Assembly (NCBI RefSeq): GCF_018977255.1 | Contig: NW_024704742.1 | Coordinates: forward strand, 44,270,001-44,334,000 | Direction: 5' to 3' | Length of the DNA: 64,000 nt | Origin: Callorhinchus milii | Taxonomy: Eukaryota | In this document: positions 31,138 to 34,126 of the stretch, one piece after another | Layout: each line of letters opens with the position of its first letter | How positions within the stretch are numbered: position 1 is the first letter of the stretch | Notes under the pieces: generated by a model | What the model was told of the DNA's origin: nothing | The model's database searches: none | The model's input: the letters and a program-made list of their open reading frames with translations, nothing else | Program-made: the position numbers and the translations under genes

Positions 31138-31305
31138 GTTCGTATGGCACTGAGGAATGCCGAAAAGGAATTGGAGAGCCGAAGTGTCTGGGCATTGCCA
31201 GAAACTCTTCAGAAATGGTTACAACTTACCCATGAAGTAGAGATACAGTACTACAATATTAAGAAACAGAATGCAGAGCTACAGCTCAATGCAGTTAAAG
31301 AAGAG
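31138..31305 (+). CDS. STIM2: STIM coding exon (end CC1, SOAR alpha1): [56 protein letters not shown]
   Basis: cttacag acceptor, GAG|gtatgt donor, 168 nt. Confidence 0.96.
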
Positions 31306-31377
31306 GTATGTATGCACTAGGCTATATATGGTGTTTCTCTAATTCTCTGAGCAAGTATTTGATGTAAACAGGGGATA

Positions 31378-31764
31378 CAGTTCAAGATCCTGGTCCTCAC
31401 CATCAAAGCCCGCCACGGTCTTGCTCCCCCCTACCTCTCCGATCTCCTAACCCCTATCAACCTGTTCGCTCCCTCCGACCAGCGGGCTCCAGCCTGCTTC
31501 ACATCCCCCGCCTTGCTCTCCCCACTATGGGCGGGCCTTTCGCCACTCTGCCCCCACCCTCTGGAACTCCATCCCACAGTCCCTCCGTCTCGTCCCCTCC
31601 CTCGCCACCTTCAAAACCCACCTCAAGCCTCTCCTCCTCGACTGTGCTTTCGATCTCCCTGCTTCCGCCCCCTGCCCTCCACCCTCTCCCACCCTGACTC
31701 TCAGCTCAGATCCGTAACTCTGTCTGTGAAAGACGCTATATAAATGTAATTTTGTTGTTGTTGT
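31378..31764 (+). mobile_element. L2 3' fragment
   Basis: FKILVLTIKA..PPYLSDLL; GCTATATAAATGTAATTTTGTTGTTGTTG tail. Confidence 0.88.
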
Positions 31765-32091
31765 AAAGTGAAACACCATTAACAACATTGTAAAATAGAA
31801 CATACACATAATAATACACATAACTCCTCACTTCCAATACAGCTCAAGCCCTCATAATGACTTTGTCACCTCCAAACTTCCTTTCCAAAGCTCTCTTCGC
31901 TGGCCTCCTTGGCTCAAACTAGCACCTCCTGATCACCATGTACCAATCACCTCCATCCTTGCCAGACTTCCTGCCCACAGCAGATCCTAGATCCTCATTT
32001 TGGGCTTTAAATCTCTGCAACTTCTTGACCCATCCTACATAGAATCTTACCACACAGAAAGAGGCCATTCGGCCCGTTCTGCCTGTGCGCT

Positions 32092-32476
32092 ACAACAACA
32101 ACAACTTGGATTTATATAGCGCCCTCCACGCCGGACGGCGTCTCAGAGCGCTTTATAGTTTAGGATCCCAGGGCTGAGCCGGGGGGAAGGGTGGAAAGGT
32201 GACCAAAGGCGCAGTCGAAAAGAAAGGTCTTCAGCAGAGACCTGAAAATGGGGAGGGAGGGAGCGAGACGAAGGGAGCGAGGAAGGCAGTTCCAGAGCCT
32301 CAGGGCATAGTGGCTGAAAGCATGGCCGCCGAGGGTGGAGCGGAGGACTTGGGGGACAAGGAGGAGGCCAGACCCGGAGTAACGAAGGCAACGGGTACTG
32401 TGCTGAGGAGAGAGGAGGTCAGAGAGGTAGGGGGGTGCAGAGGAGTGCAGGGACTTGAGTACGAGGGTGAGGACTA
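32092..32476 (-). mobile_element. L2 3' fragment nested in a CR1 3' end
   Basis: ORF 32160..32519 (LKSLHSSAPPYLSDLL..AFSHYALRLWN..LKTFLF); flanked by CR1 tail halves 32038-32091 and ~32495-32670. Confidence 0.88.
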
Positions 32477-34025
32477 CTGACTTGCTACTGACTTGTCCCA
32501 CTCCCCCGCTCTTCCCCATAGCCCTCCAAATGTTTCCTTTTCGATTACATATTCAATTCCCCTTTTGACAGCTACTATCAAATCTCCTTTCACCACCCTT
32601 TTAAAGTAGTGCATTCCAGATCGTAACAACTCTCTGGGTAAAAACAATTCTCCTCATCTCCCATTTATATCTGTAGCCTGTTCCCTCTGCTCCATAAACT
32701 TGGCCTGGCCCTTCCTCACCATTGGTGGCCAAGTTTTCAGCTACTATTTCCCACTTTGTTCAAGTTTACACTCTATCTGTGTGAAGTACTTCAAGACATT
32801 ATCCTGTGTGAAAAGCACTATATACTTGTGAATTGTGTAAAACAGTGACAAACTATTTATTTCACAAATAAGGAAAAACTGTTAACTGCTGAATGATCAA
32901 TTTATGAATAATTATGCCGATGTTTCTCACAAGTGAAACCATTTTGTTTTTGGTCTGAAAATGGAAGTGCTATCAATTTTATTTAATTTTAAAAAAATGA
33001 TTAATGGGAATTGTTAAAATAACAGGCGAGTTTTAAACCTCTGCATTGTCATTCTCGATGTTTCTTGTCTGGCACTACTTTCTTAAACATACCTGAAGCA
33101 AGGACCAGATTTGGATGCACAGTCATCACAGCTGTTTCTTTCTACAATGAGGCACTGAGCCAATATAATTATTCAGCTGCTTCACATTGTGCAGAAAAGC
33201 AAAATAAATACGTGGCCAAATGTATAGCTGGGAACAGTGTGGGAAGAAAACTGCTCTTCCTGTTTGAGTTAATGATACAATTTTTATAAAGCATCCAATA
33301 TGGCAGTAGTTCTGGTTTTGATATTGTGTTGTGCTAAATTTGTATTGAGTTTCAAAGTGTGAGTTAGTTAATTAGATATCATTAGATCATTTATAATATA
33401 AGCAGAAGTTGTGATGGGCAGATACACAAATGGGTAAGCCAGCACTATCTTAGAAATAGAATCATAGAATCCTACAGGACAGAAGGAGGCCATCCGGCCC
33501 ATCGTACCTGTTCCGGCTCTTTGCTATACAAATGTAATTTTGTTGTTGTTGTTGAAAGAGCTATCCAACTAGTCTCACTCCCAATTAGAGCTATCCAAAT
33601 AGTCCCAATAAAGGAGGGAGTATTTAAAATGTATTTAGATGTTTGTTTTCTGTATTAATGTGTGGTAGCAGTATTTAATAGCCTGGTTTTAAAAAAACCT
33701 GCCTGGTTGTGTAGGAGCAAAGTCGCTGTTGTAGAAAAGGTTCCATTCAATGGAATTGGAATGGCCTGAAACTAAATTTTAATCAGATTCTTAGATTTTT
33801 CATATTAACTTAGTTTTTCCAACGGTAATGTTGAGAATATCTGAAGACTGAAGTATTCCTGCCCTTAAATAACTGGATCCAAAGACAATCTTATTTCCAT
33901 CTTCTCTTGGTACCCAATACCTGTTTTTTTTTCGAAAAAGAGCTCTCTCTCCCCTCCCTCTCAGACTTTGGTTGAGGAGGTTTGCTGTATTGGGTGGATT
34001 GCTAACATTTTGCTGCTGTTTCTAG

Positions 34026-34126
34026 GCAGAGAGAATCAAGAAAAAGCGTAACACCATATTTGGAACATTCCACGTGGCCCACAGTTCCTCCCTGGATGAG
34101 GTTGACCACAAAATTCTGTCAGCAAA
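34026..34126 (+). CDS. STIM2: STIM coding exon (SOAR apex): [34 protein letters not shown]
   Basis: tttctag acceptor, AA|gtaagt donor, 101 nt. Confidence 0.96.

Follow-up and report, generated by a model that had tools for sequence, protein, structure and literature searches.

The window, a stretch of 64,000 nucleotides from Callorhinchus milii (elephant shark; contig NW_024704742.1, positions 44,270,001 to 44,334,000), contains ten coding exons of one gene separated by nine introns, all of which are GT-AG. The spliced translation corresponded exactly to residues 87-721 of the annotated C. milii STIM2. The exons and the intron interrupting the SOAR coding region are as follows.

4967-5081, plus strand: STIM2 coding exon, end of the EF-hand region; first exon within the window, residue 87 onward (exact splice-translate match)
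17848-17959, plus strand: STIM2 coding exon, SAM domain part 1 (profile match, splice-translate match)
19586-19701, plus strand: STIM2 coding exon, SAM domain part 2 (profile match, splice-translate match)
22143-22320, plus strand: STIM2 coding exon, transmembrane helix and start of CC1 (alignment to STIMs, splice-translate match)
22925-23102, plus strand: STIM2 coding exon, CC1 (splice-translate match)
31138-31305, plus strand: STIM2 coding exon, end of CC1 and SOAR helix 1 to position 379 (3TEQ/2MAJ alignment, profile, splice-translate match)
31306-34025, plus strand: GT-AG intron of 2720 bases with several repeat stretches where contigs accumulate in very large numbers
34026-34126, plus strand: STIM2 coding exon, SOAR basic patch and apex, positions 380-413 (structure alignment, profile, splice-translate match)
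35865-36103, plus strand: STIM2 coding exon, SOAR CC3 and STIM2-diagnostic post-SOAR segment (100% to annotated C. milii STIM2)
39207-39417, plus strand: STIM2 coding exon with tandem acceptor, starting at 39207 or 39210 (both forms are annotated isoforms)
41057-41546, plus strand: last STIM2 coding exon, polybasic tail, 11-residue extension and stop (splice-translate match)

The gene is already known and named Callorhinchus milii STIM2 in UniRef and RefSeq. Over the 635 residues that the window encodes, the protein was identical, without any difference, to UniRef100_A0A4W3ICY2, XP_007887261.1 and XP_042197105.1. The tandem acceptor (CAGCAG, 39204-39209) gives two annotated isoforms one residue apart. 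Profile searches of the annotated C. milii STIM2 detected the luminal domains PF25578 (E 8e-32) and PF07647 (E 1e-8) as well as the full SOAR profile PF16533 (E 8e-43); the exon encoding the EF loop is located upstream of the window. The TM-CC1 region of the window protein could be aligned with other STIMs, its SOAR matched 2MAJ and 3TEQ, and a lysine-rich C-terminal polybasic motif was present, followed by 11 more residues.

Phylogenetic analysis was based on 59 rows, hand-picked from about 570 proteins so as to span lineages, and on 426 columns, with nine SOAR trait columns left out. The window protein was placed in the jawed-vertebrate STIM2 clade (100/99) and in its chondrichthyan subclade (100/99), while the STIM1 proteins formed a separate clade (100/100). 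The post-SOAR segment was identical to the STIM2 of gar and coelacanth at 36/42 and 38/42 positions, but to the STIM1 of shark and lungfish at just 12/42 and 15/42. Judged from these comparisons, the gene in the window is the elephant shark STIM2, orthologous to mammalian and bony-vertebrate STIM2 (STIM2.2; E470/L485), and not a hybrid gene.

Residue numbers are given as in human STIM1, in which SOAR comprises residues 344-442 (PMC4835918). The numbering was anchored on the SOAR structure 3TEQ, where chain residue 1 (P344) falls at residue 21 of exon 31138-31305 and chain residue 37 (A380) at residue 1 of exon 34026-34126. The former exon ends with NAVKEE (GAA GAG, followed by gtatgt), and the latter begins after ttctag. 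The following codons are of interest.

31288-31290, plus strand: AAT, N374, a variable column
31294-31296, plus strand: GTT, V376, common to cartilaginous-fish STIM2, with Ala in nearly all other matches and one change on the tree
31303-31305, plus strand: GAG, E379 (E470 of STIM2), the final codon ahead of the phase-0 intron
34068-34070, plus strand: TTC, F394 (L485 of STIM2), forming the outer Phe-His pair with H398
34080-34082, plus strand: CAC, H398, forming the outer Phe-His pair with F394

Codon reading and the structure-anchored alignment confirmed N374, V376, E379 and F394, and the codons of the last two, as reported by the initial annotation. N374 could be ruled out as a meaningful site, its column showing N, H, S, T, Y, C, A, M, L and Q among the matches. 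As for the marks of mammalian-type SOAR2, the window protein has Glu at position 470 (GAG) but Phe instead of Leu at 485 (TTC); because Leu is missing there, it was not filed under mammalian-type SOAR2. As for those of SOAR1, Glu is found in place of Gly at 379, and the outer pair Phe394-His398 is present (TTC, CAC). The protein thus resembles STIM1 (G379/F394) in the pairs F391-H395 and F394-H398 and in N388, T389, Q414 and A422, but differs from it at position 379 as well as in its clade and post-SOAR segment. From mammalian and bony-vertebrate STIM2, with which it shares Glu379, it differs by Phe instead of Leu at 394 and Val instead of Ala at 376. It also has L371/N388/I390, unlike the human MESV set. 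His395 (34071-34073) is replaced by Gln in the STIM2 of Heptranchias and Pristiophorus, as well as, through a C>A change at 34073, in organism B of run X13; in human STIM1, H395A is close to harmless (PMC10616141).

A sequencing or assembly error at the codons of E379, F394 or V376 was considered. The contigs of runs X1 and X9 over the E379 exon contained 0 other letters; we guess runs X5 and X9 to be RNA. A run X1 contig over the F394 exon contained 1 other letter, whose place within the exon is not listed, and run X1 is possibly not independent of the assembly. The exon-exon joint (31305/34026) is not among the 15 contig joints listed, beyond which 2070 further joints exist. The 12 other elephant shark STIM2 models agree on the residues, most of them probably derived from the same genome. 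The reads alone therefore leave the point partly open. It is closed by conservation across species, since the same three residues occurred in 13/13 cartilaginous-fish STIM2 clusters, and the chance of an error is negligible. The residues are real, and nothing was found in favour of the sequencing errors by which the initial annotation would have had its reading dismissed.

These 13 clusters comprised 12 named ones (one chimaera, sharks and rays, two of them from Chiloscyllium) and an unnamed one holding named skate proteins. V376/E379/F394 was found in all of them; sharks, rays and skates accounted for 12/12 other clusters and 3/3 named skate members, which differed from the elephant shark only in minor ways at positions 367-368, 374-375, 382, 390 and 395. 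A one-off or chimeric gene is ruled out by this distribution. Alignment across chondrichthyans, as proposed in the initial annotation, thus revealed a trait of the clade.

In contrast, A/E/L at 376/379/394 was found in 106/110 remaining matches among the best 120 of 1333, nearly all of them bony-fish STIM2. Of the other four, three did not contain the region and one was a gene model lacking the exon, which was scored A/E/F by script and left out as a case. The A/E/L bearers include gar, bowfin, sturgeon and coelacanth. Xenopus STIM2 also has Leu; tetrapod STIM2 was represented thinly, by Xenopus and one unnamed fragment, and the human residues were taken from papers. All STIM1-side matches (107/107), shark STIM1 among them, displayed A/G/F. 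Phe394 was present in 4/4 cyclostome rows and 7/9 invertebrate deuterostome rows, and Leu394 in 2/9 outgroup rows and 35/127 scorable representatives. Position 379 was more variable in these groups, with V, G, G and L in cyclostomes and S, G, G, G, E, E, V, V and V in invertebrate deuterostomes.

The pair Glu379 and Phe394 also occurred in 19/120 stim2a matches, namely 17 salmoniform/esociform clusters, Fundulus and Cyprinodon, and in two sea urchins (Lytechinus, Diadema), one mite and one tardigrade. Leu394 was kept in stim2a of Xiphophorus and Girardinichthys. These stim2a and sea urchin proteins have Ala376, unlike the shark proteins. The stim2a genes with Glu and Phe are nested among Leu-bearing teleost genes and the urchins lie outside the vertebrates, which indicates independent origins. 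Salmon and pike stim2a additionally possess STIM1-like L390 and D404. Val376 was rarer, being found in only one stim2a among vertebrate matches outside the cartilaginous fishes and in 3/127 representatives; by its distribution in the sequences compared, it is the distinctive residue of chondrichthyan STIM2. The combination is therefore unusual, as the initial annotation had it, against mammalian and bony-fish STIM2 only, since it is clade-wide in cartilaginous fishes and recurrent elsewhere. The residue pair is not new either, because human STIM1-G379E and SOAR2-L485F, engineered earlier, carry the same Glu and Phe (PMC6267984); relative to these proteins with their Ala376 background, the elephant shark adds Val376, L371 and I390. 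A literature search, whose coverage left out most subscription papers, did not find the chondrichthyan SOAR pattern described.

The SOAR of elephant shark STIM2 shows the normal cartilaginous-fish state, which appears to represent an earlier step in the evolution of STIM2 and not an isolated hybrid. Glu379 would have been gained in the stem of jawed-vertebrate STIM2 after the split of STIM1 and STIM2. The change from Phe394 to Leu would have followed later, in the bony-vertebrate STIM2 stem only, and the cartilaginous fishes would have retained Phe394 and gained Val376. The fewest changes on the 59-row tree were 5 at position 394, 6 at 379 and 1 at 376. The five changes at 394, counted by hand, were two to Leu in invertebrates, one from Phe to Leu in the bony-vertebrate STIM2 stem and, within teleost stim2a, two back to Phe. 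No cyclostome row fell in the STIM2 clade of this tree, in which long branches were flagged among cyclostomes.

Alternatively, Phe394 could have been restored on the stem of the chondrichthyans, through a point reversal or through gene conversion from STIM1 affecting exon 34026-34126; the same data bear on this reading. Position 394 is labile, with Leu in 35/127 representatives and Phe regained at least twice in teleost stim2a, so that a reversal is conceivable; exon 34026-34126 is moreover identical to shark STIM1 at 30/34 residues versus 28/34 to gar and coelacanth STIM2. However, this margin amounts to two residues only, and lamprey STIM reached 27/34 over that exon, which also retains STIM2-type V/I390 and E404. 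A reversal costs one more change than retention by hand-counted parsimony. The stronger argument comes from the 41 columns separating STIM1 from bony STIM2. Chondrichthyan STIM2 was STIM1-like in 15 (two of them in the EF-hand loop), bony-like in 19 and different in 7. The 15 STIM1-like residues, F394 among them, were distributed over the lumen (8), TM-CC1 (2) and SOAR (5), and thus over the whole core rather than this exon alone. Phe394 therefore appears as one of many retained residues, and its regain is quite improbable. Gene conversion from STIM1 found little support in the protein-level comparison.

With Phe394 retained, the two best-studied switches between STIM1 and STIM2 would be dated to separate branches. 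The natural Glu and Phe proteins of sharks, chimaera and salmon/pike stim2a match mutants that have been studied in human cells. These findings are of value to the STIM/Orai and molecular evolution fields; they provide neither a new mechanism nor a new gene, and the evolutionary interest is modest.

The functional reading is transferred from work on the human proteins with human Orai1, and measurements on shark or chimaera STIM2 were not found. The background given by the initial annotation was right: STIM1 has G379/F394 and STIM2 has E470/L485, with Phe/Leu affecting gating and Gly/Glu affecting activation (PMC6267984, PMC7795233). Glu at 379/470 weakens CC1 docking and also Orai1 binding, and the weak coupling has been ascribed mainly to E470 alone (PMC6267984). 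Gating has been tied to the F394-H398 pair (PMC10616141). STIM1-F394L has lower efficacy (PMC7795233, PMC10616141, PMC4835918), and it raised the proportion of cells with resting (constitutive) puncta from ~7% to >40% (PMC10616141).

In the elephant shark protein, store depletion would free SOAR from the CC1 clamp. Glu379 would loosen this clamp and weaken Orai1 binding, while an intact Phe394-His398 pair would convert binding into gating more efficiently than Leu and would favour the folded resting state. The output would be intermediate: below that of STIM1, with a greater effect of each contact and slightly less leak than in mammalian STIM2. By analogy with the human mutants, elephant shark STIM2 is likely to combine weak coupling, efficient gating and a resting clamp somewhat firmer than in mammalian STIM2, with intermediate efficacy.

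In the version of the initial annotation, this STIM2 would be a full Orai agonist owing to Phe394, with Glu379 altering its activation dynamics only. This agrees with the enhanced Orai1 gating of SOAR2-L485F (PMC6267984) and the reduced efficacy of F394L; N388 is also STIM1-type, and the groove that binds Orai1, where A376 is located, might gain strength from Val376. However, human STIM1-G379E, with the same Glu and Phe, showed weaker CC1 docking and smaller Orai1 FRET after depletion, ICRAC and SOCE, and ‘behaved like STIM2’ (PMC6267984). SOAR2-L485F bound Orai1 in the same way as wild-type SOAR2, and SOAR1 was fully recapitulated by the double change E470G and L485F (PMC6267984). A full agonist is thus unlikely and not supported by these data; the results for G379E, L485F and F394L lead us to expect intermediate behaviour.

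It is doubtful that the residue differences are functionally near neutral. In that case the protein would act as an ordinary STIM2, either through the dominance of Glu379 and of its luminal and TM regions or through co-adaptation of shark Orai. The role described for E470 alone would fit such a reading, and the repeated flips between Phe and Leu at 394 suggest tolerance. Against it, the states are fixed in large groups (Phe in 13/13 and 107/107; Leu in 106/110 among the best 120 of 1333), and F394L as a single change measurably affects human STIM1 (PMC10616141). Taken as a whole, the data are probably best explained by a normal chondrichthyan STIM2 that gained Glu and retained Phe, with Leu arising later and in bony vertebrates only, and that gives an intermediate Orai output.

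Val376 is a natural substitution at a position of the Orai1-binding groove. A376 forms part of this groove in the NMR complex, where A280/Q283 of Orai1 lie opposite (PMC3927877), A376K abolishes the interaction with Orai1 (PMC3101990), and a recent model links A376 to the CC1 clamp (PMC12718381). Valine at 376 is mentioned in none of the passages cited. More tentatively, chondrichthyan STIM2 could be a working intermediate in a stepwise conversion to a partial agonist by Glu and then Leu. It could be a better clamped sensor of higher efficacy, in which Val376 and the STIM1-like EF-hand loop offset Glu, and the role of ‘basal calcium housekeeper’ could be a bony-vertebrate innovation that teleost stim2a partly reversed on two or more occasions.

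In the EF-hand loop (residues 71-85 of the annotated C. milii STIM2, encoded upstream of the window), chondrichthyan STIM2 has STIM1-like Val/Asp, whereas bony STIM2 has Ile/Glu; the luminal calcium affinity may therefore differ from that of mammalian STIM2. Two RefSeq models contain a 51-residue N-terminal extension, encoded outside the window, which resembles the long signal peptide of mammalian STIM2.

Intron 31306-34025 presumably represents the site at which mammals insert the 8-residue exon of STIM2.1. The insert of mammalian STIM2.1 is located in CC2 (PMC7795233, PMC4411291). It was present in 0/13 elephant shark protein models. Within the intron, 11 open 24-base AG-GT candidates were detected, none of them like the mammalian insert, in a scan that a diverged exon could escape. 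This lineage may lack the inhibitory STIM2.1/beta variant.

The tail extension (41511-41546) consists of 11 residues past the polybasic end and has an acidic finish. The shark and ray rows end at the polybasic end (11/11). The extension opens with CAG, a codon that a single base change separates from a stop; the chimaera line may thus have lost a stop here, which could alter membrane targeting. Degenerate open frames at 60252-61928 on the minus strand, with scattered intronic copies, resemble LINE-type retroelement remnants.
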